A stretch of 64,000 nt of DNA from positions 314,138 through 378,137 of the forward strand of contig BCGN01000004.1 of NCBI GenBank assembly GCA_001599295.1. Direction: 5' to 3'. Positions 8,603 to 31,809 of the stretch are shown here, one piece after another. Position numbers and translations under genes: made by a program. The stretch comes from Sporopachydermia quercuum. Lineage: Eukaryota. Within the stretch, counting starts at the first letter, position 1. Every line of letters begins with the position of its first letter. Below the pieces are notes generated by a model. That model was not told the DNA's origin. It searched no databases and saw nothing but the letters and a program-made list of their open reading frames with translations.

Positions 8603-9049
8603 ATGACTATTCCATTCCATACTGTTTTGCAAAGTGCGTTTAACCTGTTTCAAAATTCTATTTGGCAAGATTCTGAACTTTTTTGCTCGAAAGGACTACA
8701 TGCTGTTCGATTTAAAATGAATATTGAAGGAGAAGCCAAAGACATCGTTCTGAAACGGCTGATGACGCCGCTGAAGTTCGTTTCTGCTAAAACTCCAGAA
8801 GCTGAGTATCTGAAACCATCATCCTATACTATAGTTAAGCCTGACAATGACAATAACGATACAGGTACAAATCATGAACTAAACATGGTTGCAGAGGTTG
8901 ACTCAAAGCCCCTAGAAAAAAAAAAGAAAAAAATTCCGGCTACGAAAAGTAAAAGCGTCAATTTGGCTGATATTATCAGCTCCTATAGTAACGGTACGAA
9001 AACTAATAGGCAGAAAGAGAAAAAAGCTAAAAATACTCCAGGCAAGTAA
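8603..9049 (+). CDS. Hypothetical protein, 148 aa, with Lys-rich basic C-terminus
   Basis: ATG-initiated ORF filling the gap between ACR3 (divergent) and RTT103 (convergent); no family recognised. Confidence 0.55.
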   Translation: MTIPFHTVLQSAFNLFQNSIWQDSELFCSKGLHAVRFKMNIEGEAKDIVLKRLMTPLKFVSAKTPEAEYLKPSSYTIVKPDNDNNDTGTNHELNMVAEVDSKPLEKKKKKIPATKSKSVNLADIISSYSNGTKTNRQKEKKAKNTPGK

Positions 9050-12408: not shown

Positions 12409-13359
12409 TTACTCTTCCCATTTCTTATCTGTGAGAAGTTCGTATGCCTCTACATACTTGGCTTTGGTTCGTTCAACAATTTCTTCAGGCATAGCCACTC
12501 CCTCTTTTCCATCCAATCCATTGGATGTCAACCAATCTCTCAGAAACTGTTTGTCGTAAGATTCTTGGGATTTACCAATGGTGTAATTTTCTGAAGACCA
12601 GAATCTAGATGAGTCGGGGGTTAAAACTTCATCTACTAGCACGATATTGTTATCTTCATCAAGACCAAATTCGAATTTTGTGTCGGCAATAATAATACCT
12701 TTGGAAATGGCATAATCTCTGGCTTTGGAATATAGCTTGATAGCAAGTTCTTCGACTCTCCGAGCCAGCTCCTTATCTCCACCTAAAATTTCAACAGCTT
12801 TGTCGGGGTGAATATTCTCATCATGTTGACCTAGTTCTGCCTTCGTACTAGGTGTGTACAGAGGGGTAGGCAAAGCTTCAGATTCTTGTAATTCTTGATC
12901 TATTTTGATTCCGTGAATAGTCTTGCATTTCTTGTATTCTTTCCAAGCAGAACCAGTAACATATCCTCTGACGATGACTTCTAGTGGAATAAGTTTATAC
13001 TTATTTACTAAAAGTGATCTTCCTTCCAATTGAGATTTGTATGATGAGTTACTAGAAACTGATTCAGGTAGATTTTCCAGCAAAAGTTCATCATATGTTT
13101 TAGAGTCATGGTTCTCGAATTCGACAATGTGTGTTTTAGTGAAAGGAGAGAGAAACTCAAACCAAAATTGAGATAATTTAGTAAGAATTTTTCCTTTAGA
13201 GGGAATTCCATTCTCCATAATAACATCATAGGCCGAAATTCTATCAGTGGCTACGAACAACAAAGTCGAGTCATCCACTGCATAGATATCTCTGACTTTG
13301 CCTTGAGAAATCAATGGAAGCTTTCCATCTAAATTAGTGTGTGTTAATCCTTTAGACAT
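12409..13359 (-). CDS. ADE1: SAICAR synthetase
   Basis: GKVRDIY, ATDRISAYD, PLEVIVRGY, TPSTKA, IADTKFEFG, DEVLTPDSSRFW, DKQFLRDWL. Confidence 0.97.
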   Translation of the reverse strand: MSKGLTHTNLDGKLPLISQGKVRDIYAVDDSTLLFVATDRISAYDVIMENGIPSKGKILTKLSQFWFEFLSPFTKTHIVEFENHDSKTYDELLLENLPESVSSNSSYKSQLEGRSLLVNKYKLIPLEVIVRGYVTGSAWKEYKKCKTIHGIKIDQELQESEALPTPLYTPSTKAELGQHDENIHPDKAVEILGGDKELARRVEELAIKLYSKARDYAISKGIIIADTKFEFGLDEDNNIVLVDEVLTPDSSRFWSSENYTIGKSQESYDKQFLRDWLTSNGLDGKEGVAMPEEIVERTKAKYVEAYELLTDKKWEE

Positions 13360-13977
13360 TTTTTATGGTAGAACTCAATCAGACTCTAGTTTTTCTGTAT
13401 GAATCTCTGGTTATACGATTATTTGGGAACATGTAAAGTAGTTATCAAAATTGATATTAATACGTGCTACACATATAATGAAATGAACTCTCACTTATTT
13501 TTGCTTATTGACGGGAGAAAGCTTTATTCAATATTCGTTAACTTTAAGAGACGGATCCATCAGAATATGATGTTAGTTTACGTAATCATTTTAATGTTGT
13601 TTGTCTCATCCCAGGCCTTGTAATTAGGGTTACATAAAAAAACTGGCACACAGTACGATTACTCAAATGTCCATCCTCGGAAAAGGGATAACATACGTTA
13701 AGTAGATTTTACCCCACGATATATCCGCCAGTTATATATAACGCTGATTGGTACTGATCTAGAGACCAGTGAATGTTTTACGAAATCGAAACTGGACGAT
13801 TGCAAATGGATGGTGAGGTGAATAAACAAAAAGAAAAATAAACAGAATCAGAATATTCATTTGTAGACATATTTACAATAAAGATTCATAATTGAATTGA
13901 ATACAGATCGATTACCATTAACGATTAACAGACAGACAAACACTACCGTAAGTCTAATTCAACCAGCACCATCTACA

Positions 13978-15649
13978 ATGACAGAATCCGAAAAAATTGC
14001 CACAGTTTCCATCGATTTTGATGCCCTTTTGCAGTTTATCATCACCGACAAGGAATACCAGAGACTTGCACATCTTGTGAATAGCAAAACAAAGAAGAAG
14101 TTACTACCTAGTGAAACAAATTCACCACCAGATGAGGAGAAATATACCGAAGGCGCAAACAGTTCACTGCTAAAACGAGTATTTGATACTCTCACGAAAC
14201 TCGTAAGAAGCGGAACAAGGTCGTACATCATTACATATGCTGTTTTAATAACTTGCAACCTATTAAAGCTGTCAATACTAGCACTCAAAAACAAGACTTC
14301 GCTAAGGAACGTATTGGGTCTTGCAAACACTGTTGATATACAAAGTGTGGCCAAATTTGTGGCAGCACTATTTTCAATTTATCCAGTAGTAAATAATGTA
14401 TTAAAAACTCTAACCACTAGTACCGGGTCTTCAGTGTTCGAATCTAAATTAGCCAAACGACTGTTACTTGACCCAAATACTATCTCAGAAGTTATTGGAA
14501 CGGTACTAACTACAGGCATTGCTTACAGATTTACGCCCAAATCATTCCCTCAATCGTATGTTGCAGTATTCTACATATGCAATGCAGTGCAGTACTCTTT
14601 TGCTACTATTCAAAGCAGAGAAAGAGTCAAACTCCCATCATGGTTGGGATCCTGGGTGATTTTTCCCTTTGCCTTCTCTGAATTATTTTATACCTACATC
14701 TGCGACATTGAAAATTGTCCAAGCGTAAGTTTTATTTCATTTGGACTATAATACAGTTTAAAATTGCGCACTAACATACAGAAAGACATTTGAGAAATAT
14801 TTTACGAAATTGCTAGATGGGTTCTTTGAAAGCAAACCGTCATATGTCAGTAAGAACCTAGAATGGCCAACAACAACAGATTTAATTGACGCAATTAGAA
14901 AAATTCCTCTAGACTTGAACGACAAATATGCTTCATATATTGGCAAGAGAGCTTATTATCAATCCCCTAATATACCTGCTATTGAACCTGTTTTGAGAAT
15001 ATCGAACCCTGCACATAAGAACTATTTCACAGCTCTTGCTCATCCAACGAAAGAATCCAACGAAATCTCATTCTTGAAGTTTATCGTGCGGAAAAATGTG
15101 ACGTTGTTAAAGTACTTTTTACCATTTTACTTAGCTCTAGCCACATGGAAAAGATACAAGAGCAAGAAAGACGTATCTGAAGCCAGCGATAGTAACGCTG
15201 CGACAGCTGTTACAGTCAAAGAAACGATCAGAAATTCGTTCAAAAAGGCCATTAGAACCTCTTTATTTTTATCAGTACTTGGAGGTACGGCTATAAACTC
15301 CACAGTAAATATCCCAAATGTTGTATCATCTAAAGTTCTTCCTAAAGCACGATATCGAATTATTGGACTTTTGGCAGGAGCTTCGTCCTTGATATTGGGA
15401 AACCACACTGCATTATATTTATATGCCTTGCGTTATGCCGTCTTGGCGGCCTGGAGTGAGATAGGAAAGTCAAAGAGAAACTTAGGAATTCTCAATCGCA
15501 GTAAATATAGGGATTCTTATCTTCTGGCCTTCGCATATGGGATACTAGCATATCTAAAGGCTACTGGTAACCAAGGCCAAATCAAGAGCAAAGCAACCAT
15601 GAGAATTTTGAATTTGATACAACGAGGTAATGCATTCTCATTTGAGTGA
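13978..15649 (+). CDS. TMEM135/PMP52-like (probably peroxisomal) membrane protein, 2 exons
   Basis: Exons 13978-14724 and 14786-15649, joined by GTAAGT...CACTAAC...AAG. Multiple hydrophobic segments; PSWLGSWVIFPFAFSELFYTY, WPT and AHP motifs resemble fungal TMEM135-family proteins. Confidence 0.65.
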
Positions 15650-15870
15650 AATTGTCACATTTTTTGATAGATAAGTAAATTGTGGGTATAAGTTGAGCAT
15701 TTGATGTGTAATATGTTTCTATTTCTTGATGAATGAATCACTTTTTGGTATAATGTTGAACTTCAGAATGTAGACAATATGCCACACTTAATTACAGGAT
15801 TGATTTACTGTTGATTTCTAGTCACCTAAGATTGAACTAGTAAAGACACAATGTAGTAACAGAACCGTCA

Positions 15871-16530
15871 TTATTCTATGATACCAGCTTCTGTGTTCAA
15901 GATACCGGGGACAATACTCGAATCAGCTGGTGGAAACAAATATAAATAGGGTCCACCTGGTATAGCCTCGTCACTATCAATCAATGTAGATCTATCAAGT
16001 ATTTTAACACATCTAGTAAGTTCGGAAAGGGAGGGCTTGCATTTTATCACAAAATGATTAGATTCCAATTCATCTGCAATTTCTAGTTGATGGTTATCCA
16101 TTAATTGGTCATTTGTCACCACTAATAGCTTATTTCCTTTTCGCAAGGAATCTAAAATAGACCCTGTTCCTGCGTGAGATACTACCAAGTCACAGCTTTC
16201 TAATATATTTCCTAGTTCAAACGAAAAATTAAATCCCTTTATTATCAACTTATCTCTGTAAGTAAATTCGAACTCTCTCAGTTTCATTGACGTCTCATTC
16301 TTATTCATAGTTTTCTCCTCGAACTCAACATCATTTGTCAGACTTAGAACAAGCTCTTTAGCTAGATCCCACCCGAGATCTTCAACCCCAAACTGTATCA
16401 AATAATTAGTGATATTCAAATGTATAAGTACGTCTATAAACTCCCGACTTAAGCTGATTTCAACAAGGGAGCGAAATGTAGTTGTAGCTCCTGTAGTTAC
16501 TAGCAGTGTCTTTCTGTTTGCGGGTTTCAT
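15871..16530 (-). CDS. ALG13: UDP-GlcNAc transferase catalytic subunit
   Basis: LVTTGAT..F, IQFG, DLVVSHAGTGSILD, VTNDQLMDNHQLEIA. First ATG at 16530 (the track start is GTG). Confidence 0.92.
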   Translation of the reverse strand: MKPANRKTLLVTTGATTTFRSLVEISLSREFIDVLIHLNITNYLIQFGVEDLGWDLAKELVLSLTNDVEFEEKTMNKNETSMKLREFEFTYRDKLIIKGFNFSFELGNILESCDLVVSHAGTGSILDSLRKGNKLLVVTNDQLMDNHQLEIADELESNHFVIKCKPSLSELTRCVKILDRSTLIDSDEAIPGGPYLYLFPPADSSIVPGILNTEAGIIE

Positions 16531-16777
16531 TTCACTATCGACAACCTTCCTCAGTAACCAAGTTAGGATGTCAGGATCACTTTTTTTTCCTTTCCAGTCT
16601 GTAATGAATACTAAAAACTGACAATTTTGAGTACCACTTTCAATCAATTCCACTCATACATGAAGAAGAGCTGATAGAAAAGTATATCTAACACTCGTCG
16701 CATCATAAATGAGTTCAATTGTAAGCTACAAATCATTGTTAATTCCCCATTCATTTTTCAGTTTGCAACACTATGAA

Positions 16778-16870
16778 TTTCCATATAGGGTAAGGTAAAT
16801 CATATGACCAAATTATATAAAACAGGCAGTTTACTTAATCAATAACCACTAAAACAGATTTATGTAAACA
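16778..16870 (+). promoter_or_regulatory. Mcm1 site with adjacent forkhead-like site, plus a second forkhead site, upstream of KIN3
   Basis: TTTCC-ATATAG-GGTAA-GGTAAAT at 16778-16800, TATATAAA at about 16814, GTAAACA at 16864-16870. Confidence 0.55.
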
Positions 16871-17440
16871 GTTATCTGGATTGGGTAATGATGAATTATT
16901 TCCTGAATGACCGGCAGATAGAAGATAGAATGCTCCGCTCCGTACGAGAGAAGTAAGTAGTAGAAACTGAAATATGTATGGACTAGAGTGGAAGTAGTAG
17001 CGATATGAGTAAATCAAAGCTTGGGTAAGATACTCAAAGATCGAGGACCTTGAAGATCAAAGTAAGATATGGAATTACGATAGTGGATTTAAGAAGGGGA
17101 ATAGGGAATAATAATAATTCATCGAGAAGGAGAACAGAAATAGTGTCAGAGTGATGCTTGTGGATATATGAAGATTGGTCAAGCAAGAATTACTTAAGAT
17201 AAAACTGAAGTTTAGATGTTCGCTTATTGGAAGAAGGATTTCATTCAACTAGAAGCAAGACACTGGAAATTAAGTCAGATCTGAAGCTCGATAGCTGAGT
17301 TTATCAAACTTGCTTAGTTCGATCATTCAAGTGGAACTGCCATAACTCGCACTCTCTTCTTGTTAAAGGGGATAGAACAGAGAGTACTAACATCAAATTT
17401 ACTCAAATATCAGCAAACCTAATCATTTTCATAACGACTT

Positions 17441-19432
17441 ATGGGACGACTAAAGTCAACAACTACAACAGTGATATACAACAAATCAAGCAAGATGAGC
17501 TCAATAGAGAACGACTATGAAGTACTAGAACTGATAGGACGAGGTTCCTTCGGAAACGTCAGAAAAGTACGTAGAATATCAGATGGGAAGATAATGGTTA
17601 GAAAAGAAATAAACTATCTTTCGATGAACCCCAAACAAAGATCACAACTTAACGCTGAGTTCTCAATACTGAGAGAGCTGAAACATCCTAATATTGTACA
17701 ATACTATCACCACGAATTAATACAAAATGACCACACTGTACACCTATATATGGAGTACTGCGAAGGTGGTGATCTGGCAGGTGTCATAAAGGAATGCAAG
17801 AAAACTGGAACTTACGTTCCTGAAGAATTAGTGTGGCGAGTATTCACTCAAACCCTTTTAGCCCTTCACAAGTGTCACTATGGCGTAGATGCTGCACCTG
17901 TAGACAATCTATTTCAAATTGGGGAACTCACAAATGAAGAGCCTATCGGATACAACTCTTCAGTGACAGTGATTCATAGAGATATAAAGCCAGACAATGT
18001 ATTTCTATTAAAGAACAATTATGTCAAGCTTGGCGATTTTGGTCTGGCAAAAGTACTAGAAAGTGAGAACGATTTTGCTACCACGTACGTGGGTACACCT
18101 TATTACATGAGTCCAGAAGTACTAATGGATGAACCATATACACCTCTATCAGATATATGGTCACTGGGATGTGTGATGTATGAGCTATGTGCTTTGCATC
18201 CGCCATTTCTTGCAAAAACACATTTACAACTTTCCAATCGCATCAAACAAGGAACTTACGACCCAATCCCGAATCACTACTCTCAAATGCTAAGAATGAC
18301 GATTGATGCATGCATCACTATAGAGCCATCACACAGACCTTCAAGTGCATCATTGCTACAGTCTAATCCTATGAAAATGGTCAGAATGGATATGCGCCTG
18401 ATGGAAAAAGAACAATATCTCATTGAATTAGAAGATCGACTGAGAATGGAAGACGCTGGAATCAGAGAAAGAGAGGCTACCGTAAATGCTCATTTAAATG
18501 AGCTTGGGGCAAGAGAAATGGCTCTGAACAAAAAATTCGAGGAGCTCAGCAGTGTGTATGAATCTGAGTACCAGTATCTTGTCGAACAGGAAGTTCAAAA
18601 TAGACTGAGGGTTATCCTTCAGCAACAAGAGCTTGAGCAAAGTGAACACCATTTTTCGAATTCAGTACATACCGAGAATACAAGTCTTCAAGTAGTGGAC
18701 TCTACAGAGGATTACGAACAAAGGCAGAAAGATTCCATAGCTCTGACACCATATGTGAACAAAAGATTAGGTGGAAGATTTCCTGGACTCAATTCACCTT
18801 GTGATATAAGTATGTCAATGACACCTTCTCCTAAATTATTGCGCGGACCAAGAACAAATCCCGAGCTAAAGACTCCATCTACAGATTTGAGAACACCGCT
18901 GAGAGTGATTCCTTCAGACATATCTAGTCTGAACAGTATAAAAGGTCGTACATGTTTTGGAATTACAACAGTCCATGATCCATTAGATGGGACTGAAATT
19001 TCAATATCAAACACAGATTTGGGGACATATATAACAGCATCAACACCCATGAAGAATCCCGCTAGCCCCTCAAAATCATTATCAAGAAGAGTGAAGAACT
19101 ACTCAAAATCTCAAGACCAAGTAAGAAGTCAAAGTTCGTTGTCAAGCTATAACGATGTAAAAACACCAGGAATGAACACAGAATCGAAAAGATTACACTC
19201 AAATACTGATATCATGTCTAGTCCTGGATTTGGATACGGATTGGGGGCAGCAGCTGCTAAGGCTAAAATTCTACAACTTAGTACCAATAGCCCTGTGACA
19301 CCAATGTTGAAAGTCCTACAACCTCGTGAAGCTTTAGTTTCCGATTCAACGAACATGAGAGGACCAGTTGAATATAATGAAAACCAAACGCAAAGACCAT
19401 ATTTACCTGACTGGCAGCCATCATACAACTAA
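17441..19432 (+). CDS. KIN3: NIMA-family Ser/Thr protein kinase
   Basis: IGRGSFG, VRKEI, MEYCEGGDL, HRDIKPDN, DFGLAK, YVGTPYYMSPE, DIWSLGC, then a coiled coil and an S/T-P-rich tail. The true start may be the second Met at 17495. Confidence 0.92.
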   Translation: MGRLKSTTTTVIYNKSSKMSSIENDYEVLELIGRGSFGNVRKVRRISDGKIMVRKEINYLSMNPKQRSQLNAEFSILRELKHPNIVQYYHHELIQNDHTVHLYMEYCEGGDLAGVIKECKKTGTYVPEELVWRVFTQTLLALHKCHYGVDAAPVDNLFQIGELTNEEPIGYNSSVTVIHRDIKPDNVFLLKNNYVKLGDFGLAKVLESENDFATTYVGTPYYMSPEVLMDEPYTPLSDIWSLGCVMYELCALHPPFLAKTHLQLSNRIKQGTYDPIPNHYSQMLRMTIDACITIEPSHRPSSASLLQSNPMKMVRMDMRLMEKEQYLIELEDRLRMEDAGIREREATVNAHLNELGAREMALNKKFEELSSVYESEYQYLVEQEVQNRLRVILQQQELEQSEHHFSNSVHTENTSLQVVDSTEDYEQRQKDSIALTPYVNKRLGGRFPGLNSPCDISMSMTPSPKLLRGPRTNPELKTPSTDLRTPLRVIPSDISSLNSIKGRTCFGITTVHDPLDGTEISISNTDLGTYITASTPMKNPASPSKSLSRRVKNYSKSQDQVRSQSSLSSYNDVKTPGMNTESKRLHSNTDIMSSPGFGYGLGAAAAKAKILQLSTNSPVTPMLKVLQPREALVSDSTNMRGPVEYNENQTQRPYLPDWQPSYN

Positions 19433-20065: not shown

Positions 20066-20843
20066 TTTGTGTACACAGCTATGGCCCTTTGTCGAATTTA
20101 CGCAAGTGTTCAATACTCCCAACAAGATGGAAAACCAACGATGTACATTCAAAAAATTCAATTATTTCCCAAGGTTCTCCTAGATCTTATCCTTTGAGTA
20201 ATATCCAACAATTTCATGAATCAGTTGTACCGTCAACTTACCCATTATTCATCAAATATTTCCATGGCACTGGTAATATAATAGAGGTACCATACATAAA
20301 TCCACTATTCTTATCACACTGCTTCTAAGACTGTTTCACAATGGCCGATGTAAGGTTGAAGCTGAAATGTACTGAGGTTTACACATACCGTATTTCGGGC
20401 ATGAATATTTCAGAACTAAATGCGAAGGAAGCGAGACGTGAGATGGCATAGCATGGACAGGCATCCGATTATGCCTGCGTCCAGGACCCTTGAACCGAAA
20501 GTTATAATTGATGTCATCTTTCACTATTTGATTGAAGAAAAATCAGAATATACATCGGTTGAGATTAGATATAATTTGGTGGGAGTATGTGGTTTTAGAG
20601 AAACGTATGTATGGTATAGAGCACTTAGAATTCTTGTGGAGTAACCATTCACATGCTCTTACTTATTCAACTGAGCTAGAAGGTTTCTCAAAGGAGAACC
20701 AAATGAAGCACGTGAGTTCCTATAAATCGAATTGTTGTCTTGCCGTGAAGAGAAGCATAATTCTTATCTACATAGTTGGCCATTAAGAACTCGAAATAAA
20801 GTACAGAAACAAATACTGGTAATGAATTTTTTTTATGATTTAA

Positions 20844-21857
20844 ATGAAAGGATTTTTGGCAATGGGAAGAGCTAGAAGAGGAGGTAATGCGGTCTACGCC
20901 GTTGCTAATGGCAGACAATTGGGGTTATTCAAATCATGGGAAGAATGTCGAGACCAAGTTCATGGATTTACAGGAGCTAAATACAAGAAGTTCGTGACGC
21001 AGTTTGATGCTATAAACTTTCTCAGACAACATGGCCTTGATGAAAAAGGAAGGCTGTTGCCCCAAATTTTACACGTGCCAGAGAATTTTCCAGGAGATAG
21101 CGGGAACAGTGATAGTGTGGAAATGAAACTTGATGCCTATGAACTCAAAAATGGTAATTTGTCTATGGGTCAATCTTATGAAAATTCATTTGCTATTGAG
21201 AAAAAACTGGGAGATAATTCTGGTAGCAATACAAAGTATGACGTACCAACGATTACCAATAGAGAAGCAGAGACTACTGATGAATTACTATACAAAAAAG
21301 TGTATACTGATGGTGCATGTAAATCCAATGGAACCACTAAGGCTGTTGCTGGATATGGAGTGTATTTTGGGCCTTCTGATAAGAGAAATATCAGTAAGCC
21401 GTTAGAAGGATCAGAACAAACGAACCAACGGGCAGAACTAACGGCTATCCTACGGGCGTTAGAGGTGATCTTGAAGGAAATAGCAGATAATGACGGTGAT
21501 TTTGATATAGTTTACACTGTAATGACAGATTCACAATACTCTATCAATTGCCTAACGAAATGGTGGAAAAACTGGGTGAAATGTGACTGGACAAAACCTG
21601 ACGGACAGCCTGTGAAGAATTCTGATCTTATAAAACCAGCATTGCTATTGATCGATAGGATAAATGATTACTACAAAAAGAAAGACGAATCTCTTTTATT
21701 ATCAATAGAGTATGTTGTTGGTCATTCTGGCGATGCAGGAAATGACAATGCAGATCGTCTGGCTAATGAAGGATGTGATAATTCACCTAAACTGTTGAAT
21801 TATGCTAGTAAAAGTAGCAGGTATACCTCTGGAAAAGACAATTACAAGCCATATTAA
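20844..21857 (+). CDS. RNH1: Ribonuclease H1
   Basis: N-terminal hybrid-binding domain (YAVANGRQLGLFKSWEEC...GAKYKKF) plus RNase H catalytic motifs VYTDGAC, QTNQRAEL, TDSQY, GHSG..GNDNADRLA. Confidence 0.94.
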   Translation: MKGFLAMGRARRGGNAVYAVANGRQLGLFKSWEECRDQVHGFTGAKYKKFVTQFDAINFLRQHGLDEKGRLLPQILHVPENFPGDSGNSDSVEMKLDAYELKNGNLSMGQSYENSFAIEKKLGDNSGSNTKYDVPTITNREAETTDELLYKKVYTDGACKSNGTTKAVAGYGVYFGPSDKRNISKPLEGSEQTNQRAELTAILRALEVILKEIADNDGDFDIVYTVMTDSQYSINCLTKWWKNWVKCDWTKPDGQPVKNSDLIKPALLLIDRINDYYKKKDESLLLSIEYVVGHSGDAGNDNADRLANEGCDNSPKLLNYASKSSRYTSGKDNYKPY

Positions 21858-22208
21858 TTAATTGGTCAATCTCTGATAGTATTTCATAACGCAGTACGAG
21901 CAGAATTATATGTTGTTAGCTTTGTCTAGTATAAGCTAGTTCGTCAATAATCTTCGGATCATAAACCTCAGGGCGATTGAAAGAACAGAGATGATACTGG
22001 TTATCATATATTTAATACCATACCGTAGCTTACATATACGCTGGTAGCATTATCAATATTATATTACAATCTGTAAGACACATAAATAAGCAATTTAATA
22101 AACGCTGTTAGATGAACAAAAAATATATATAATAGTAATTAATCCAGAATATATCTAGAAACAAAAAGAGATAGGCCTATTAATGAATTACAGCCAAAAT
22201 AAACTCCA

Positions 22209-22280
22209 AGCTCCACACGGGACTCGAACCCGCAGTCTTCGGCTTAGGAGGCCGATGCCTTACCTTTTGGCCAATGGAGC
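22209..22280 (-). tRNA. tRNA-Arg (anticodon CCU), intronless
   Basis: GCTCCATTGGCCAAAAGGTAAGGCATCGGCCTCCTAAGCCGAAGACTGCGGGTTCGAGTCCCGTGTGGAGCT folds as a cloverleaf: acceptor GCTCCAT/GTGGAGC, anticodon arm TCGGC-CTCCTAA-GCCGA, T-loop GTTCGAG, downstream T-run. Confidence 0.95.
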
Positions 22281-22588
22281 AAATTTCTCAATTGCTCATA
22301 CTTTTGACTATTTAAGATAATCAAATGGATAAGCCCATTTCCTGTCTCAATACCCATACTTCTTTTTGACGGTACGTTTTATTCCCTTCTGCTTTCATTT
22401 CTCACCTATCTATCCACTATGATTATTAGGGTATTCTACCATGACTTAATGCTCATTCAGTTATGATCCTGTTTGTGTGAAAGGACTATATCATTTTAGT
22501 TTCATCATAATCAAAGGTTTTGCGAGCAGTTGATGCACACCTTTGCTTACCGGTTATAACTCATAGTGACAGAACACAACATCCTACA

Positions 22589-23180
22589 ATGGAGCACGAC
22601 AGAGAAACCTCCATACCAAGAGATGTTCGTCTGATTCATTTGATATTTATGCAGTTAGGCATAGATTCGTTTCAAGAACATGTTCCATTGCAGATTATGG
22701 ATTTTGCTCACAGTAAGTGTGATTGATTAGAATATCAGTGCTTCAAGCTGACTTCTTACTACTAGCGACATTGGCTCTTACTTTTTTTTTTGCCTTGTTG
22801 CACACATATATTTTCTACTCCATCACTCAACTCAGTACGTATACTAACTAACCAATCCTTCAATAGGGTACACTCATAGTATACTAGCTGATGCTATATC
22901 TTATAATGAACATCGAAATAATACGTCACATTCTCATACAAATCCTCCTTTGAATTTGGAGGACGTGAGATTGGCAATTGCTGCAAGGACCAACTATCAA
23001 TTTACTCCTGCTCCACCAAAGGAACTATTAATGGAAGTTGCAAGTGAGAGAAATAAGAGACCTTTACCACCTGTGATTCCTGGCTGGGGAACTAGATTAC
23101 CACCAGAGAAGTATTGTTTGACTGCTAGAGAATACAATGTAGATGAGGAGTTGGAAGAAATGCAAGGAGACGAAGAATAA
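22589..23180 (+). CDS. TAF9: TFIID/SAGA subunit Taf9, 2 exons
   Basis: Exons 22589-22712 and 22867-23180 (GTAAGT...TACTAAC...TAG). Motifs PRDVRLIHLI, QIMDFAHRYT, EDVRLAI, PPKELL, RNKRPLP, RLPPEKYCLT. Confidence 0.94.
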
Positions 23181-23782
23181 CGGATCTGAAAATAGTAAAA
23201 GAAAGGAAAGGAAGGAAGTAGATATAATTATGAGAATTGGATAATGTCAGAGTGGTATGTTTGATTGCCCAAGGGAGACTCCCTCCCTTTCTGGAGTTGT
23301 CCTGGTAAGGAACCTGTAACCTGATAAGACCTTGTATATTATGGTGTTTTAGACATTATGAAATAATAGATTTATTCATACTAAATTATCATGTTAGTAT
23401 GTCTTGAGAAGTATGTCTAGCACAGTATAAAAAGGCGTTATGTATTATTTCCTTCGAAATGTTATGATCTCGACCCCCATTTGCTCTGTTGAGAGCAAAC
23501 CATTGCTATCCAAATAGTTGCGAGAATGAGAATCCCCTTTCTAAACGATGCCAAGAAGGCAATAGCACCGATAAATGAATCCATCTACTACAAGTTTCTC
23601 ACCTATTTGCAGATATAAAAATTAGCTTTCTATTACTGATGTTACCTTAGTGGACCTAATATGTGAATAAATGAGTGGTAGCGAAGTGTCCAGAGTCTGC
23701 AAAGAATGCTCACCGAGTACCCCGGTTATCATAGGAAAACATTGTCGTTTCACGGGGCGTCTCAAGTCTCTCTTGTGCGCAC

Positions 23783-24589
23783 TCATTCCTGCGTCGACTC
23801 CTCAATATGCAGAGCGAACCCGCGGGCACCAGGCGATTCCAGACCAGGTTTCAGTTCCATCGTCGGGATCTTGTAGTCGCCGCCGTTCTGTTTCCGGTAT
23901 GGTATCGGGGCCACTGTTGTCAGCGTGTGCATACGTTCGCGGAGTTGTTCAGCAACGACCTCGAAGCTTGCTTCGTCCATTCGATCTGCCTTGTAGGCCA
24001 CAAAAGGGGGAAGGACTGTGAAGCCGGGATAGAAAAGCATGCCGTGATTGATGGGAAACAGCAGATCTTCAATCCTACCGTTGACACCGCGCTCGGAGTA
24101 ATGCTCGGGCCAGCCACCGGCAGTGACAATCAGCATTGCGCGCTTGCCCGTCATTTCGCCCTCGCCGTACCGGTCGCCCCAGCGACTATTGCTGTGTTCA
24201 CCGATGCCATATGCAAACCCACAGGCATAGACACGATCAATCCAGCCTTTGAGTATCGCGGGCATGGAAAACCACCATAACGGGAACTGGAGGATCACCA
24301 CATCGGCCCAGCGGAGCTTGTCCTGCTCGACCTTGACATCCTCCGTGAGGCCGTTCTCCGCGAATTCTTTTGACGATGCGGAGCCAACAAGCAGTCGTTC
24401 CTCGGAAGATACATGCGGAAAGTCGTCCCGGTCGACGGTCGCTTTCCAGTTCATGGTATAGACATCGGACACCTTGACATTATGTCCTTGTGCCTGCAGT
24501 TCTGCAATGGCGACATCGAGTAAAGCACCATTGAGAGAGTGTCTTTCGGGATGGGCAAAGACTATCAGGACATTCATCGTGGAGGTCAT
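23783..24589 (-). CDS. NAD(P)H:quinone oxidoreductase, flavodoxin-like fold (NQO1/MdaB/KefF-related); GC-rich, probably horizontally acquired
   Basis: VLIVFAHPE..SLN, VSDVY.MNW, EQDKLRWAD, QFPLWWFSMPAILKGWIDRV, GKRAMLIVTAGG. Candidate ATGs at 24589 and 24577; intronless; composition differs sharply from neighbours. Confidence 0.92.
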   Translation of the reverse strand: MTSTMNVLIVFAHPERHSLNGALLDVAIAELQAQGHNVKVSDVYTMNWKATVDRDDFPHVSSEERLLVGSASSKEFAENGLTEDVKVEQDKLRWADVVILQFPLWWFSMPAILKGWIDRVYACGFAYGIGEHSNSRWGDRYGEGEMTGKRAMLIVTAGGWPEHYSERGVNGRIEDLLFPINHGMLFYPGFTVLPPFVAYKADRMDEASFEVVAEQLRERMHTLTTVAPIPYRKQNGGDYKIPTMELKPGLESPGARGFALHIEESTQE

Positions 24590-25061
24590 CCTGTCCTGGT
24601 TTATACGAAGAAAAAAATCAGGGAAATTCAAAACAAAGTGTTCAACTACGCCGTTTGAGCTATGCACTATGCTGTTGGCAACAGAAGTCTATAATGTATA
24701 TCGCTTTCTGATTTGTTTTGAGGATTCTCCTTCTGAGTTTCGCTACAAGTCAAAGCATAACCATTTAGGAGCTGGCTGAAATCCTGACACTATATATAGA
24801 CCAATATACTTCTAGAATATATATCAATATCGCAGGTTTAACATAGCTACTGATATAAGTATAAACATATATGCCTAATTTTCAATCCTCTTACTATTGC
24901 AGCAATGCCGTTTGGAATCTGCTGGATCACGTTACTCCAGAGCTACATATGAAGCAGGAACAGTTATTATTAAGTTTCATGGTGACATGAGATTGTGTAC
25001 TATTGTTGAATAACTTCTACTTGGAATGGAGTACTATCAATATCAACAAAAATGACATCCA

Positions 25062-25340
25062 TTAGTAAGCAGAATGAATGCGTCATAGAATGGCTGAAAC
25101 ACTAGCATCGCGTATAGGAATACCGGGGCTGTACCAACTAGTTAAGGATTGCTACATATATGGCAAGGTAGACTAACAGAAAGCTCACTATTCCTGAATG
25201 ACCAATGATTATTTGATTTGGTCTGTTTAGACTATAATTACATCGAGCAATGGGTTACTAATCGAAACCTCGTTCACCGTACAGATAACCATCTCAAGCA
25301 TACCACTAGGCAAACACTTATAGTTGATTAGGTAATCATC
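25062..25340. promoter_or_regulatory. Cluster of Yap-type bZIP elements upstream of the quinone reductase gene
   Basis: TTAGTAA at 25062-25068 (context ATTAGTAAGC), TTACTAA at 25255-25261, TTGATTAGGTAATCATC at 25324-25340. Confidence 0.5.
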
Positions 25341-25427
25341 CTTCACTATATTGATATTATTGTATTTTATTGTTGCATTATAATACCATAATGTATGGAG
25401 TTGATTATATTGGTTAATATAATGGCG

Positions 25428-25459
25428 TTACAATTACAATTACTATTACTATTACTATT
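25428..25459. repeat. Imperfect hexanucleotide microsatellite (TTACAA)2(TTACTA)3
   Basis: Read directly from the sequence. Confidence 0.75.
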
Positions 25460-26358
25460 GTCAGTAAATTCCTCATTAAAGGACAGTACTTCTTTATTCC
25501 TTCAAATTCTACCGATATTTTATAACTTCCTTCTCACTCACTTTTCTACCGAATCTTACAATTTCTGCTCCAATGATGAAATCAAAGAACAAGTAAAGAA
25601 AAAAAGCAACTTTTGTCTGAACATTCAGAAGCAACTAATGAAAATCAATTAAATTCATGGAAAATAATTATTAAGAATGACAATAATATATACTCAGGTT
25701 TCATGAATCGTCTCTGTCACATGTATTAATGCTATTCAGTTATTGTCTACTAAGCATGAACTATTGGATCATTGACATTTGAACCGATAGTTATTTTTCA
25801 TTATTCTCTTGAAAACCCTTCGGACGACGTTTCGATCAGCTTTCTTTCATTAATAGATTAGTTTGGCTGGATGGAAGTGAAAAGAATAATTCATTAAACA
25901 AAAAACTTGTAATGATGAATGTATGAATAAATAAATACCGGCTGTAACCATTGTTGCCGCATGGAATAATGATGATACTGGTGTTCTCCCTTCCAAACTT
26001 TGTGGAGTACTAATTTATGTCGTTCTTGATAAATCATATAGCTCAGACAATCATATCATACCTCCCAACAATCATTTGAATAAATCATTCAATTTATTAT
26101 ACAATTCTCCTGCATAATTTAATAATACAATACATAACATAAGATAATAATTAACATACCAGATAACAAGCAATATTAATATTAGATGCGGAGCTCTAGA
26201 GCTGACTTCTGATATCTTAAACTCGACTTTTATTCCTCCATCCTTTAATTTCCGTCTACTTAATCTTCGATTCACCCATAGCTCATATCACATTACTTTA
26301 ACTAAGTTAAGTGGATATTGCATTGCAACTCATGTGTATACATTAGTTGTCAGCCTTA

Positions 26359-29300
26359 TTAAATAAACACTGGCTCTGAAGATAATGAAGCTTCATGATA
26401 CCGTACTTTCCAGTCTTCAATCTCCTTTTCTAAATTCAACACTTTGTCATACATATCACGTTTCTCTCTTTCTAAACGTTTAACATCAACTTCCAATTGC
26501 GTTTCCGAAGAGTTCAAGCCTTCGATTTGGCCAATCAGTTGTTGGATTTTTTCCTGTTGTTTCTTTGTCAATTGGGCCAATTCAACTGCATCTTTGCTTT
26601 TCAAGCGAGCTAAATCCTCAGCTTGTTTCAACTGTAAGTTCAGTTGTTTCACTACCGAATCCCCTTTCAGCCTCTCGGTTTCTAATTCCTGAATTTGGAT
26701 TTCCAGCTCGCTTACTTTACCCATTCGAGTCTCGTTGCCGGTTTCCAGTTTCTGCTCCAGATCTTTCGCATGCAATTCGAATGCCTTGCATTTATTACGA
26801 ATATCCTCCAATTCTGCCTCGGCAATACATTTATCTGTCTCCAGCTCAAAATTCAGCTTTTTCGTTTCATCGAGCTGCTGCTTCGTTGTTGAAAGATACT
26901 TTGCTGCTTCTAAAAGCTTGATTTTGATTTCATCATAGTCCAATTTCTTAGTAGCAAGTCTTGTTTCCATCTCAGTTAGTTTCTGCTTACAAGAATCCAA
27001 TTCTGATGTTAATACTTTACTCTGGTTTTCATGTTTGTTTGATAGTTCATTCAACTGTCGTTCTAGATTTATTTTTGCTTCGAGGAAATTATCTCGTTCA
27101 TCAGAAACGTTTTTCAGGGTTTCTTTTAGATTAGTAACATTGCCTTGTAGTTTGAGAGCTTCAGTTTGCTTTTCCTCAAGCAGTCGCTGATCTTTCACGC
27201 CGCCAATTTTCAGGCTTGATACTTCTTTCTTGAGTTCTGTTTCCTGTTGTTTAAGCTGTTCAATCAATTTATAATGAGACGCTTGGATTTCTTTCATTTT
27301 AACGACTTCTTCAGTGTATCGTTCGAGTTCCTGTTTACAAGCTTGAAGTTGCTCCTCTTTTTTCAATGCCATTCCACGTTGCTGATCTATCTGCTCTTTT
27401 AGCGATTGCATAGTTGAATTCGTAGACACTTGGAGATCAACAGATCTCGCGTTCTCAGATTGGACCTGTCCTTTAAGGAAATCTCGTTCTTGTTGTAACT
27501 GGGACACAGTATACTGTTGATCGTGCAGCTCCTGTTGTACTGTTCGTAGTTCCTGGCTGAGAGTTAGCAGCTCGGCTTCTTTATCTTTACGCTGGGCTTC
27601 CGATTCGTGATAATCTGACTGAAGGTCTTTCAGTTGATTTTTGAACAGCTTTTCCGTTTTTTGAGTCTTGAGAATAGCTAGTTCTGCTGCTTCTAGGCGA
27701 GAGTAGAAGTCAGCTGCTCGTTCTTTGTATAGCTTGGTTGTTATTTCCAGTTCTTCATTCTTCGATTTCAAGGCTTCCAATTGGACCAATAAATCATTGG
27801 TTTTACTAGGAGAAGACATCTTTCTAGGAGAAGATGGGATAGTAGTGAAAGAGGATGAAATAGTAGAAGATTTTCTGGACAGTATTTCCTGTTGTTGCTT
27901 CCGACTTGTTCTCGTAGGACTGTTATTAGGAGAACTTCCTGGTTTTATTGCAAGCTTTCTTTCTGCTAGTATATGTTCACGAATATTGCTCTTCATTGTA
28001 TTGTTGTTATCAGTATTGGTACCGTCATCACGAACATCCCACGAGAGTGTTCTTGTTGACTTGGATCTCTGATTCTGGTTGCTAACAAATGACGAGGGAA
28101 TAGAAGAAGCAATAAACTGTTGGAATTGCTTTTCTAGCTTTTCATATTTTTGTTTATACGTTTGGGCTGTTTGCTCATCACTAGAGACATTAGTAAAAGA
28201 AGAATTGCTGCTATTACTCATGCTTCGATTTAACTGAATAGTCAACTCTTTCAGCTTTTGTTCTAACTGCAGGTTTCTTGTTCTCAGCTCTTCGTTCTCT
28301 TTACCAAAGCTTTCTTTTCTATTGCTATCCACATCTGGCGTTGTATTCTGCATGTTATCATATAGATGCTTGTCGGTAAGTATATGATTTGCCTTATGGG
28401 AATTATTCGCTAAGACAGTGGAGGTTTCATTCTTCTGCTTTTCATTTTCCTTGTCTAATTCAGCTTCTAAATCAATGACCTCTCTCTGCAATATTTCCAC
28501 TTTTTCTTCCAGTTGCTTTCTCTTCTTTTCATGTTCTACTGGTATTTTCTGAAGTTGAACGTTTAATGCATCTATATCTTGCTTCAGGTTGGCAATCAAC
28601 TCATCCCTGAAACTTAATTCAGCTTGGAGCTGTTTCCGCAATGATCTGATCTCAGCTTCAGCCTGCTTCAGCTTTCCTTGAGCCAACTGCTCGTTCTGCT
28701 CCTGTTTCGCACGATGATTCTCTTTCTGCTGCAGCTCTTCAACTTGATGTTTTAATTTGGACTCTTGTTCTGCTTTGTCTTTGATAACTGCAGCTTTCTG
28801 CTCTAGCAAAACATAGTTTTCATCTTTAAGCCTTTGCAATACATTACTTACTTCCGAATACTGCTGTTGTAGCTCTTTTACTTCGTTGTTCAAGGCAGTA
28901 CAGTTTTCAGTTTCAGCCTTCAGTTTCTTCCGCAGCTCTGTTTCAGTATCAAGCTGTCGTTGGAACATGGCTTCTTTATCAGCAAGTAGTCCTTCTTCAG
29001 AAATCAGTTTCTGATTGAGCTTATGAACCTCCATTTCTTTCTTTTTATGTTCTAGTTTAAGTTTTTCCTGGTGGTCCTGTAGATTAGCTAGGCGCTTTTC
29101 TAGCTTCTTCACTTGCATAGAAGTAGCCAATGAGCCATTGGCTCTATTGGAGTGCACCAATGGTTTTAGTTTCACATATAGAGACCACCATTTGTTGTTT
29201 TCTAGCTGCTTATACTTTTCTATGCTTTCGGCTATTGTTTTCACGGCATATACTTTCCTGAGCTTAGTTTTAATGACCTTTCGGGCTAAATAACCTCTGA

Positions 29301-31809
29301 CAAGATACTGGAACTTCTGAACGCTTTCAGTGATCATTTGGTCTCTGACTGCTTCTAAATCTGCTAAAACACCATTTTTGAAAAATAGTTTGGTTAAACC
29401 TATCATGTATAAAGATTGGTCTAAATCTAGAGACTTCAGGATGATCTCACAGGCTTTACGAGACTCTATGTAGCCTCTTGGAAGGTTGGCCGTCAAACAA
29501 CCATAACGTGCTTTGAATACTGAGAAAGGAACTCTGTTAGGGAACCCAGTTCTAGCGATACGAATACCTTCTAGGACACCATTGCATCTCAATTGGTCTA
29601 AAATGAGCAGATTGACAAACTTCTTAGGCCTTTTATCTCTATTAGGGACAATACAACGAACAAAATAAGGTGTAGTTTCGTTCAGCTGGGTCATAAGTGC
29701 GCTCAATTCTTCTTTATGCCTTTGAGCAACCGTTCTTAATGTGGGTCTCCGTTTTGCCGAATAGAGAAAATTATTGTTCGATGTGTGCTTGGTATTATTT
29801 CCGGCTTGGTTGCGAAATTCAACAGGCTCATCATTTCCGAAAAGTCGCCGAACAAACTTATTATTACTTCCGGAAATTATCCCAAGTAGATTTTCACTTA
29901 AACTGTCCTTATTTCTCTCTATCCATCCTTCTGTTGAATATTCTACTTTCCCGGCATAATGAACAACTGTGAATCCTTGTGTGAATTTATTAGCTTGAAA
30001 TTTATTGTTTCTTCCTTCCCATAGTTGACTTAGTTTGTTAGCAAAGGAGTCATCATTTCCGTTAGGTACAACACATTCTTCATCTAAACAGGAAAAGATA
30101 CCAACTGGAGAATTCTTTTCAATCAAATCGATTGTAGGCTGTAAGTCGTTTCCGAAATCTATATACTTCCATTCAATGTTTTCCTTTGCGTATTCTTCTT
30201 GTTCTAGAACAAACACGTGATGATTGAAGAACTGTTGAAGCTTTTCGTTAGTGTAATTAATGCACAATTGTTCAAAGCTATTTGTTTGAAAGATTTCAAA
30301 TCCTGCAATGTCCAAAACACCTATAAACGTTACTGATTCTTGGCTTCTTACTAAGTTATCATTAATTATTTCAACAAGAACTCTGAACAGTCTTTCGTAA
30401 AGTGCTTTTGCTAAAGCGTCTACAGCTACTCTTGCTTGAACTGCGGTTCTTTGCTGATTCACCCATTCTTTGCCTGCTTTCACTTTTGGATGTAAAATAG
30501 CTTTCTGAAGTACATCAACGGATTCAATACCCAAAACATGACAAGCCTTCTCCAAGTCTGATGCATCTTCGATTCTAGCTTGGCCCTGTCCCTGCGATTG
30601 CGATTGAGCACTCTGAGTTCCCAATCTATTGCCTATGATTTTAGTATTCCCTAGATGGAGTATACCCGCTAACACTTTGAATATATTGGCTTGATCCTGA
30701 GACGAAAAGTTCATCAGATTGAAAGCTTTGAATAGTTTCTGAAACTCCTTTTTATCGTCTACTCCTTGAATCTTAAAATTGCCGTTCTGCAAGTACTGGA
30801 AGCGTGATAGTGTCTTGAGACCTTCATCTTCTCCCAGAAGAAGGTCTTGACGTGTAGCTTGATCAATTCCAGCGAGCATTTGATAGAATATATGATAATT
30901 ACGTTCTCCATTGTTCTGGACAATAACTCTTGATTTCTCGAGCAAATACCAATCAATAGTAGCACCAGATATTTTTCCCACTGAGGAAAACTCCAAGCGG
31001 ATAAATTTACCAAATCGCGAAGAGTTATTGTTTTTAACGGTTTGAGCATTTCCAAAGGCTTCTATAATAGGGTTCGCTTGTAGGATCTGGGTTTCAAGGC
31101 TTGTATCTTCCGTAGAACTGCTAGTAATACTAGTTAAGTATTGAATAACTTTTTTCGTGTTTTCTGTTTTACCTGCACCAGATTCACCAGTGATTAGAAT
31201 TGATTGGTTGTCTTTGTTCTTTACCATAGTTCTATACGTTAGATCAGTTAGAGCAAAAATATGGGGCTCTGTTTCTTCTTTCTTGCTGTTTCTATACATT
31301 TGGATAGTTTCTTCGTTATATATGTTAAGCTTGGTGTAAGGATTGACCGCTACTAAGAATATGCCCGAGTAGGTATATATTAGATCATCCTGGTACCTTG
31401 TGAATAGATTGTGGAGTACTGATGGTTCATTTAGATATGTCAACTCTGCCATATCTCTTGCATTTTTGAACTTTGGAGGATTCACTTTGTTTAATGTGAG
31501 CATATCAACGTATTTTTCCTGAAAACAATGTTAGTATTCTATAGATCTATAAGCAGCCCCATTGGAATTCCTAGTACTGAGTTCAAGTAGAACCTTCGTA
31601 TGTTAAAAATGAAATTCCATATGGTTACTTACTTTACTGTTTTCGCATCTTACTAATGCCTTCTGAATTTCTTTATTATCCGAATCGTAGATTTGATTAC
31701 TGTTTGGATCCTTTACTAGGTACCCTTTGGTGAATTGGCCATTGGGCTCAGAAACCCAAACCCATTCATGAGTAGCAAATTCTGCTGCTCCACTGTCATC
31801 AGACTGCAT
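26359..31809 (-). CDS. MYO1: Type II myosin heavy chain, 2 exons, about 1778 aa
   Basis: Exons 31809-31633 and 31518-26359 (GTAAGT...TACTAAC...CAG). Motor motifs GESGAGKT, NNSSRFGK, LDIAGFE, QLRCNGVLEGIRI, an IQ region and a long coiled-coil tail. Confidence 0.94.

Follow-up and report, generated by a model that had tools for sequence, protein, structure and literature searches.

We found that this yeast carries a gene for an NQO-like reductase that is a real, young bacteria-to-yeast transfer from acetic acid bacteria. The gene lies in a 64-kb stretch of DNA, called the window here, which covers 314–378 kb of contig C4 in an assembly of 16.4 Mb and 15 contigs. The bacterial origin of the gene and its true integration into the chromosome are practically certain. 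The explanation that best fits our observations as a whole, an acetic-acid-bacterial insertion that gave the host a working two-electron reductase, is in our judgment a probable one. A horizontal acquisition had been proposed in an earlier note on this DNA, made from the sequence alone, and is now supported by composition, best hits, trees, unsaturated silent sites, and contiguity in two assemblies.

The acquired reading frame (Table 1) is open throughout, with no internal stop and no intron required, and contains two in-frame ATGs, one at 24589, which adds MTST to the N-terminus, and one at 24577, which is the bacterial start position. Its GC content is 0.550, its GC3s 0.606 and its CpG o/e 1.06, as against 0.355–0.422, 0.259–0.378 and 0.38–0.72 in the 18 other window ORFs that served as host baseline (19 of the 26 window ORFs were scored, and 7 antisense or intron-run ORFs omitted). 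Over the whole 64 kb, GC peaks at 0.558 in the 800-bp segment at 23751; the other segments average 0.364 (sd 0.022) and reach at most 0.438. These values confirm the intact, intronless, GC-rich ORF in an AT-rich background that the earlier note had described. Its proposed check of GC3 and codon usage, run here against the 18 window ORFs, gave GC3s of 0.61 versus 0.26–0.38, and the Arg codon bias was evident (CGN in 13 of 15 codons versus 154 of 515 in the other ORFs). Of the codons it had listed as frequent, GGC makes up 13 of 23 Gly, GTC 13 of 21 Val and CCG 4 of 14 Pro codons, and GCG only 3 of 21 Ala codons. Two antisense ORFs overlie the gene, at 23807–24280 (+, 157 aa) and 23671–24021 (+, 116 aa); since comparable frames occur over bacterial homologs too (e.g. 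L119), they seem to be by-products of GC-rich codon use.

Table 1. Features of the window around the acquired gene (positions are those of the window)
Feature	Position	Strand	Basis and remarks
tRNA-Arg(CCT)	22209..22280	-	1.5 kb from the insert
TAF9	22589..23180	+	exon 2 matches PF02291; exon limits taken from the sequence
GC/CpG-rich island, likely inserted DNA, ~0.93 kb	23672..24599		change-point
Post-stop stretch, ~110 bp, GC 0.48, CpG-rich	23672..23782	-	change-point
Acquired reductase ORF	23783..24589	-	268 aa, 807 bp; ORF call and homology
TATA-box-like site TATATATA	24791..24798	-	candidate read from the sequence, ~200 bp 5' of the first ATG, within AT-rich DNA of host type
Yap1-type site TTAGTAA	25062..25068		~475 bp 5' of the ATG; weak hint
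Yap1-type site TTACTAA	25255..25261		~670 bp upstream of the ATG; weak hint
NUMT-type insert, 93 bp	25912..26004	-	12 differences from a 1.5-kb contig at ~30-fold nuclear depth in X1 and X2
Myosin heavy chain, MYO1-like, main ORF	26359..31503	-	PF00063 Myosin_head; 1714 aa

Among the top 120 homologs of the acquired protein, 29 carried an organism name (27 bacteria, two yeasts and no mould), and the first eight of those named were Acetobacteraceae. The best of the 120, P0002, is 83% identical to the acquired protein and is its sister. When 15 hits without an organism name of their own were looked up by cluster, five (P0005, P0008, P0010, P0020, P0021) led to acetic acid bacteria, and P0023 and P0027 were likewise resolved to this group. 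Bacterial CDSs found in genome searches reached 82% identity in amino acids and 78% in nucleotides, with a range of 77–82% in amino acids for Acetobacteraceae, and dS from the acquired gene to L119 and L090 was about 1.1. The homology search and ML tree called for by the earlier note placed the protein inside a bacterial clade: in a tree of 40 rows it fell within a starred clade of 13 (97/93), made up of two yeasts, eight named acetic acid bacteria, one bacterial metagenome locus and two rows without organism name. An earlier protein tree of 41 rows recovered an acetic-acid-bacterial clade with the acquired protein (93/87; all protein trees were LG+G4), and a DNA tree of 19 rows placed the gene in a clade of 11 (99/98). 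Silent sites were compared by a test that needs no tree model (172 CDSs computed, 39 printed). At fourfold sites, 58 of 109 are identical to L119, as against 40.7 in within-family shuffles (p 0.0005); sharing was found at p < 0.03 for 10 of the 11 closest CDSs, and at p < 0.05 for just 2 of 15 sampled distant rows. The silent sites shared with acetic acid bacteria are still unsaturated, a signal that a vertically inherited fungal gene could not have retained. Sequence comparison thus makes a donor among the Acetobacteraceae very likely, although the earlier note had considered the donor undeterminable from this sequence; the trees and silent sites name it. Nor did the suggested affinity to filamentous ascomycetes hold, the sole named mould homolog, from Alternaria atra, being 52% identical.

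Within the donor group the Flavodoxin_2 gene is patchy, occurring in 26 of 401 genomes of the family at E 1e-80 and in 8 of 57 genomes at the level of the genus at E 1e-120, and members from Gluconobacter, Acetobacter and Asaia fall in one 90% cluster. This patchy presence and the cluster across three genera suggest that the gene is mobile among acetic acid bacteria. All Flavodoxin_2 clusters returned by an atlas search were bacterial-dominated. A plasmid vehicle was considered and rejected: no Acetobacteraceae plasmid occurred among the best 30 of 530 records, the best identity was 70%, and DNA matches were confined to the CDS.

The earlier note had taken the subfamily to be atypical of core yeast genomes, but members were found in five other yeasts, in three other tree positions: Brettanomyces naardenensis (74% identical), Lachancea mirantina (70%), Saccharomyces uvarum (58%), Tetrapisispora phaffii (51%) and Kazachstania africana. 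For part of these fungal homologs, 8 of 150 representatives were looked up. Four changes are needed to explain the six yeast rows of the 40-row tree, at least three of them forced by starred branches, and of 200 bootstrap trees 0% unite these rows. L. mirantina groups with Zymomonas and a row without organism name (99/95), B. naardenensis pairs with the bacterial metagenome locus (87/95, and 95/93 in the 41-row tree), and the trio of S. uvarum, T. phaffii and K. africana falls outside (91/86), with long-branch warnings. AU tests of grouping the acquired protein with other fungal rows gave p values of 0.067 for seven fungal rows, 0.066 for six yeast rows, 0.073 for the Saccharomycetaceae trio, 0.116 for Lachancea and 0.434 for Brettanomyces; the log-likelihood drop was 29–46 for four of these five constraints and 3.7 for the Brettanomyces pair. 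Earlier AU tests of fungal grouping had given p 0.072, 0.25 and 0.30. Repeated capture is the best tree and on these sequences our best reading, though not a proven one, as the AU tests leave a single fungal clade unrejected (p 0.066–0.43). P0303 is the sister row of L. mirantina (99/80), and P0369 and P0371 have long branches; any of the three could be a further eukaryotic copy.

We put forward, as a serious but tentative proposal, that the subfamily is a repeat capture target of budding yeasts from bacteria of sugar-rich habitats, with at least three and perhaps four acquisitions, of which the gene described here would be a rewired young copy. Acetic acid bacteria would then be the source for this yeast and B. 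naardenensis, a Zymomonas-like donor that for L. mirantina, and the copy that S. uvarum, K. africana and T. phaffii carry would be older. LysR control would have been exchanged for a host promoter, possibly one driven by Yap1, in a host in which no Lot6 was found.

The placement of the host bears on whether its copy and that of B. naardenensis go back to one event. Host NMD3 is 67–76% identical to its best 120 hits, which are spread over many yeast groups. In a one-gene tree of 38 rows (37 of the 120 hits used), its branch is long, has no starred sister and falls outside the Pichiales, Serinales, Wickerhamomyces and Saccharomycetaceae clades that were sampled. One bacterial acquisition common to the host and B. 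naardenensis, followed by yeast-to-yeast transfer, would fit the position of both copies in one starred acetic-acid-bacterial clade, and their pairing was not rejected (AU p 0.25 and 0.43). However, the two yeast copies are 74% identical to each other, versus 82% and 80% to bacterial or unnamed neighbors, and they share one exclusive residue when set against 15 relatives, at the ragged C-terminal end. The Brettanomyces copy shares three residues with the bacterial locus beside which it stands in both protein trees, a locus with LysR and IS neighbors, and the host falls outside the Pichiales clade. A shared acquisition is on balance unlikely, yet credible enough to be kept in view beside separate captures. 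The NMD3 alignment also shows that CTG is read as Leu in the host (3 of 3 sites), so that the 10 CTG codons of the acquired gene are read as in the donor; a genetic-code barrier (CUG as Ser or Ala) is ruled out.

Yeast HGT has been surveyed before, reportedly across 332 yeasts by Shen et al. in 2018 (Cell). Roach and Borneman (2020) listed a flavodoxin family protein of B. naardenensis, g1784 (K08071), with an Alien Index of 74 and Gluconobacter as closest hit, among 12 HGT orthogroups (PMC7052964, Table 6); g1784 is probably the same gene as DEKNAAC101549 (P0018). In Lachancea, 24 HGT families, 11 of them bacterial, were described by Vakirlis et al. (2016; PMC4937564). Our literature search found no paper on repeated capture of the Flavodoxin_2 NQO-like subfamily, and one supplement file of PMC10025432 gave no match; Shen et al. 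or the supplement of Vakirlis et al. may list these genes.

The acquired protein matched PF02525 (Flavodoxin_2) with 180.1 bits against a cut-off of 27, over residues 5–218 and positions 1–196 of the 198 in the model. WG[DE]RYGEG is present in 105 and YR.QN..DY in 118 of 125 aligned homologs, in agreement with the Flavodoxin_2-type subfamily, with WGDRYGEG insert and YR.QN tail, recognized in the earlier note. Among solved structures, sequence scores were highest for 4GI5 (342 bits), followed by NQO2 (158) and NQO1 (126–137). An AlphaFold2 model built with a 104-row alignment had a pLDDT of 87 (a single-sequence fold, at 39, was unusable), and Foldseek matched it to 4GI5 (TM 0.84) and NQO2 (TM 0.79). 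The flavin-site motifs are intact in the alignment with human NQO2, namely the H13/S18/N20 loop, P103–F107, T156/G158/G159 and Y164, where the NQO2 residues are those that we take to bind FAD; H13, S18, P103, W105, W106, G158, G159 and Y164 are invariant in the 104 rows. The protein is not NQO2 (K08071) proper with its His-His-Cys metal site, the aligned residues being H182, F186 and Y231. A stretch of 37 C-terminal residues extends past the end of the NQO2 alignment; it sits where NQO1 presumably has its NAD(P)H-binding tail, to which it shows no sequence alignment. We likewise assume the metal-ligand roles in NQO2, with His-His-Cys and a short C-terminus; a literature search turned up no paper on these ligands.

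On the strength of the model, the acquired protein belongs to the NQO1/NQO2-fold reductases. By analogy with these enzymes, it would bind FAD, act as a homodimer and follow a ping-pong mechanism with quinone as substrate, and we lean towards quinones as its main substrate. Quinone and xenobiotic detoxification would be its role, judging from the family. A working enzyme could instead prefer an azo or nitro compound or some other electrophile or, like NQO2, take its electrons from a different nicotinamide than NAD(P)H. Flavodoxin_2 also includes azoreductases, MdaB and KefF, and every NCBIfam equivalog cut-off was missed (KefF 99.8 vs 210 bits, KefG 74.6 vs 240, PRK09739 91 vs 162, AzoR 22.4 vs 188). 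The nearest structure, 4GI5, is labelled just 'putative' quinone reductase with no assay found, and NQO2 scores above NQO1. The top-ranked fold and sequence matches, however, are all quinone reductases, and the C-terminal extension lies at the place of the NQO1 tail, with which it does not align in sequence. We consider such a change of substrate or donor rather improbable, and continue with a quinone reductase as the preferred reading.

The host has flavodoxin-like reductases of its own. A search of its assembly with PF03358 returned three matches, the acquired gene and two adjacent, divergent loci on C8 (L199 and L200, G000:C8:446448-449007), both flavodoxin-like. L200 is a clear Pst2/WrbA homolog, and L199 contains no ATG-started ORF of 150 aa inside the locus. 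No Lot6-like gene was found by PF03358, with all three candidates accounted for, a count that is a lower bound. As a cytosolic flavin reductase, the acquired enzyme would, as expected from its family, use NAD(P)H for the two-electron reduction of quinones or related electrophiles without semiquinone redox cycling, and would supplement the host enzymes of WrbA/Pst2 type.

The silent sites of the gene give some indication of how long it has resided in the yeast. The nine bacterial CDSs nearest to it have GC3s of 0.56–0.78, and its own value lies within these bounds, which indicates nearly no drift to host codon use. Polarized silent changes ran from GC to AT at 24 of 93 sites and from AT to GC at 6 of 26, compared with 32 of 98 and 11 of 30 in the bacterial control L124; no AT pull beyond the bacterial controls was seen. 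Given the donor-like GC3s and this lack of AT pull, the dS of about 1.1 probably built up for the most part in a donor lineage outside those sampled, and the residence time in yeast would be short. The earlier description of a relatively recent, incompletely ameliorated gene fits in its first part, while 'incompletely' understates the case, GC3s being still in the bacterial range. In a two-ratio codon model of 12 CDSs, omega was 0.164 on the query branch versus 0.083 in the background (p 0.037) and below 1 at p 1e-4; on three bacterial control branches it was not raised. Private residues avoid highly conserved columns (5 of 25 versus 14.1 expected, p 1e-4), and one of the changes, L43V, alters a column in which 93 of 93 distant homologs have Leu. 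These patterns suggest a purifying but relaxed constraint; the branch mixes donor and yeast time, and purifying selection on it is no proof of selection in yeast. Relaxed yet purifying selection was likewise reported for Wickerhamiella xenologues (PMC13376923). Judged from its sequence, the gene is probably still functional.

The insertion could be real and recent and the gene nevertheless an unexpressed passenger, too young to have decayed. The absence of a measurable GC3s shift to the host and silent changes like those of bacterial controls agree with this, as does the doubled omega, which by our arithmetic would result from a short spell of neutrality over about 9% of the branch. The gene has lost its bacterial promoter and shares its intergenic region with a dead NUMT. 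Against this stand the intact 807-bp frame, private changes that shun conserved columns as strongly as in bacteria, open frames of the family kept in five other yeasts and, weakly, a TATA-like and two Yap1-type sites upstream. The heptamers follow the Yap1-type consensus. Such sites number 13 in the window versus 15.6 expected, which is no enrichment, and the upstream pair is a post hoc hint. A short (TTACTA)n-like repeat, with matches elsewhere in the runs, occupies 25428–25461 of the same upstream intergenic region. In S. cerevisiae, PST2 is induced by Yap1 (PMC3166172). As both the omega and the private-residue results mix donor and yeast time, they are compatible with a young silent passenger, which we nevertheless judge a minor possibility next to a functional gene.

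Vertical descent of an ancient fungal gene lost in most yeasts would accommodate the homologs in several Saccharomycetaceae and Alternaria and the AU p of 0.067 for a single fungal clade, but it is extremely improbable in view of 82% identity to bacteria versus 51–58% to the S. uvarum, T. phaffii and Alternaria proteins (when conserved NMD3 itself has just 67–76% to its best 120 hits), donor-like GC3s, and unsaturated silent sites in common with acetic acid bacteria, which come close to refuting it.

The surroundings of the gene are those of a yeast chromosome. The neighbors form an ordinary budding-yeast set (RNase H1, tRNA-Arg, TAF9, myosin, an EF-hand protein and COQ7), and the position between TAF9 and MYO1 given in the earlier note agrees with the PF02291 and PF00063 matches. 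TAF9 has one spliceosomal intron (22713–22866) and is convergent with the acquired gene; the myosin ORF, presumably of type II from its coiled-coil tail, ends 1.77 kb upstream. The ADE1-like gene near a KIN3-like gene (12409–19432) and RNH1 near TAF9 (20844–23180) presumably resemble S. cerevisiae neighborhoods. Two further ORFs, 13978–14751 (+, 257 aa) and 8603–9049 (+, 148 aa), had no Pfam match, and the former may be an exon of a longer gene. All sampled words of 22400–26400 were present in three runs from two studies. The region 20500–28500 lies in a single 106.6-kb contig of each of two assemblies, X1 (2023) and X2 (2016), at flat depth and with 0 differences, gaps or joints. Both are contigs, not raw reads, and possible sources of the window DNA, and hence represent no second strain. 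Two other runs covered 3 of 30 (X4) and 2 of 30 (X5) bins of the stretch: X4 gave the tRNA, short TAF9 matches and a 251-bp contig (depth 2.6) identical to TAF9 exon 2, and X5 two short matches. Both junctions, for which the earlier note had suggested a check by long reads or PCR, lie inside one contig in each of these two assemblies. A chimera is unlikely, since it would have to recur base for base in two libraries. A bacterial contaminant misjoined into the assembly, conceivable with contigs from possible sources of the window DNA, is accordingly extremely improbable: identical junctions were seen in two libraries and two studies at the depth of the 106-kb contig, the ORF edges show no joints or loose ends, the LysR neighbor was not found in the assembly, and no bacterial gene above 78% nucleotide identity was found. 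A protein search of the 16.4-Mb assembly found no second copy of the acquired gene.

Change-point analysis placed the island edges at 23672 (range 23667–23712) and 24599 (range 24556–24610), so that the island takes in the CDS plus about 10 bases before and about 110 bases after it. The downstream stretch is possibly a donor-derived 3' flank, and no bacterial flank match outside the CDS appeared in 114 bacterial loci (three chance hits of 15–21 nt) or in plasmids. Insertion by a transposon or IS was rejected as a route, as the 20 largest families of direct repeats and the 25 longest inverted pairs contained neither terminal inverted repeats nor a target-site duplication at the island edges. 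All 7 of the 7 bacterial loci that were inspected (Pfam run on one) have a divergent LysR-type ORF head to head with the reductase; this donor regulator was not found in the host assembly. The NUMT upstream matches PF00361 at E 7e-4, below the curated cut-off, as a fragment of a complex I membrane subunit, which we take to carry a nad5-like motif. A search of the host's own genome with it matched 25912–26004 alone, and the mitochondrial genome therefore seems absent from the assembly.

The following course of events emerges. About 0.93 kb of DNA from an Acetobacter/Komagataeibacter/Brytella-type lineage was inserted into the TAF9–MYO1 intergenic region; in the donors the gene and a divergent LysR regulator make up a two-gene module. 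What moved would have been the reductase CDS, a few upstream bases and perhaps the ~110 downstream bases, and nothing more. With regulator and bacterial promoter left behind, the acquired gene would depend on a host promoter. Most likely, free DNA would have been joined in at a double-strand break, the route also assumed for the NUMT 1.3 kb away. Break-mediated capture and tRNA neighbors have been discussed for yeast HGT genes by Rolland et al. (2009; PMC2715888).

Single-gene transfers from bacteria to yeasts are well documented and the B. naardenensis case is already listed, so the event alone is unsurprising. What is added here is a clean mid-chromosome case with sharp bounds, a nearly unameliorated gene, a nameable donor group and a lost regulator, together with a pointer to several separate entries of the same enzyme into yeasts. 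If repeated capture is true, quinone or electrophile stress would be a recurring selective pressure in niches of yeasts and acetic acid bacteria, and the genes, being of different ages, would form a natural time series of the domestication of a foreign enzyme. They also make up a small, cheap set for testing promoter and codon adaptation following transfer.

Known systems resemble the acquired gene to different degrees. The native yeast enzymes Pst2/Ycp4/Rfs1 (WrbA type) and Lot6 are also flavodoxin-like two-electron quinone reductases (PMC3166172), but belong to another family (WrbA TIGR01755, PF03358) than the acquired Flavodoxin_2 enzyme. Human NQO2 (1QR2) and NQO1 (1D4A) have the same fold (TM 0.77–0.80) at 40% and 32–34% identity, and their N-terminal H-P loop, QFPLWWF and TAGG motifs align with the acquired protein; the latter has an 8-residue insert, and two of the three NQO2 metal ligands are replaced in it (F186, Y231). 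The putative quinone reductase of Klebsiella pneumoniae (4GI5) is similar in its 58% identity over the full length, the WGDRYGEG insert, the C-terminal tail and a TM of 0.84; it was a structural-genomics target, for which our literature search found no functional paper. B. naardenensis g1784 is of the same subfamily and donor group, is likewise a case of a single yeast species and is 74% identical, yet it belongs to another yeast lineage with another bacterial tree neighbor, and its independence is likely, though not shown statistically. Another counterpart is the LysR-linked NAD(P)H-dependent oxidoreductase of Acetobacteraceae (e.g. Acetobacter aceti P0128, Brytella acorum P0124, A. syzygii P0131), which has the same length, motifs and codon style, 77–82% amino acid and up to 78% nucleotide identity. 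In contrast to it, the yeast copy stands without the divergent LysR gene and the bacterial promoter, and carries a 4-residue N-terminal extension and 25 private residues.
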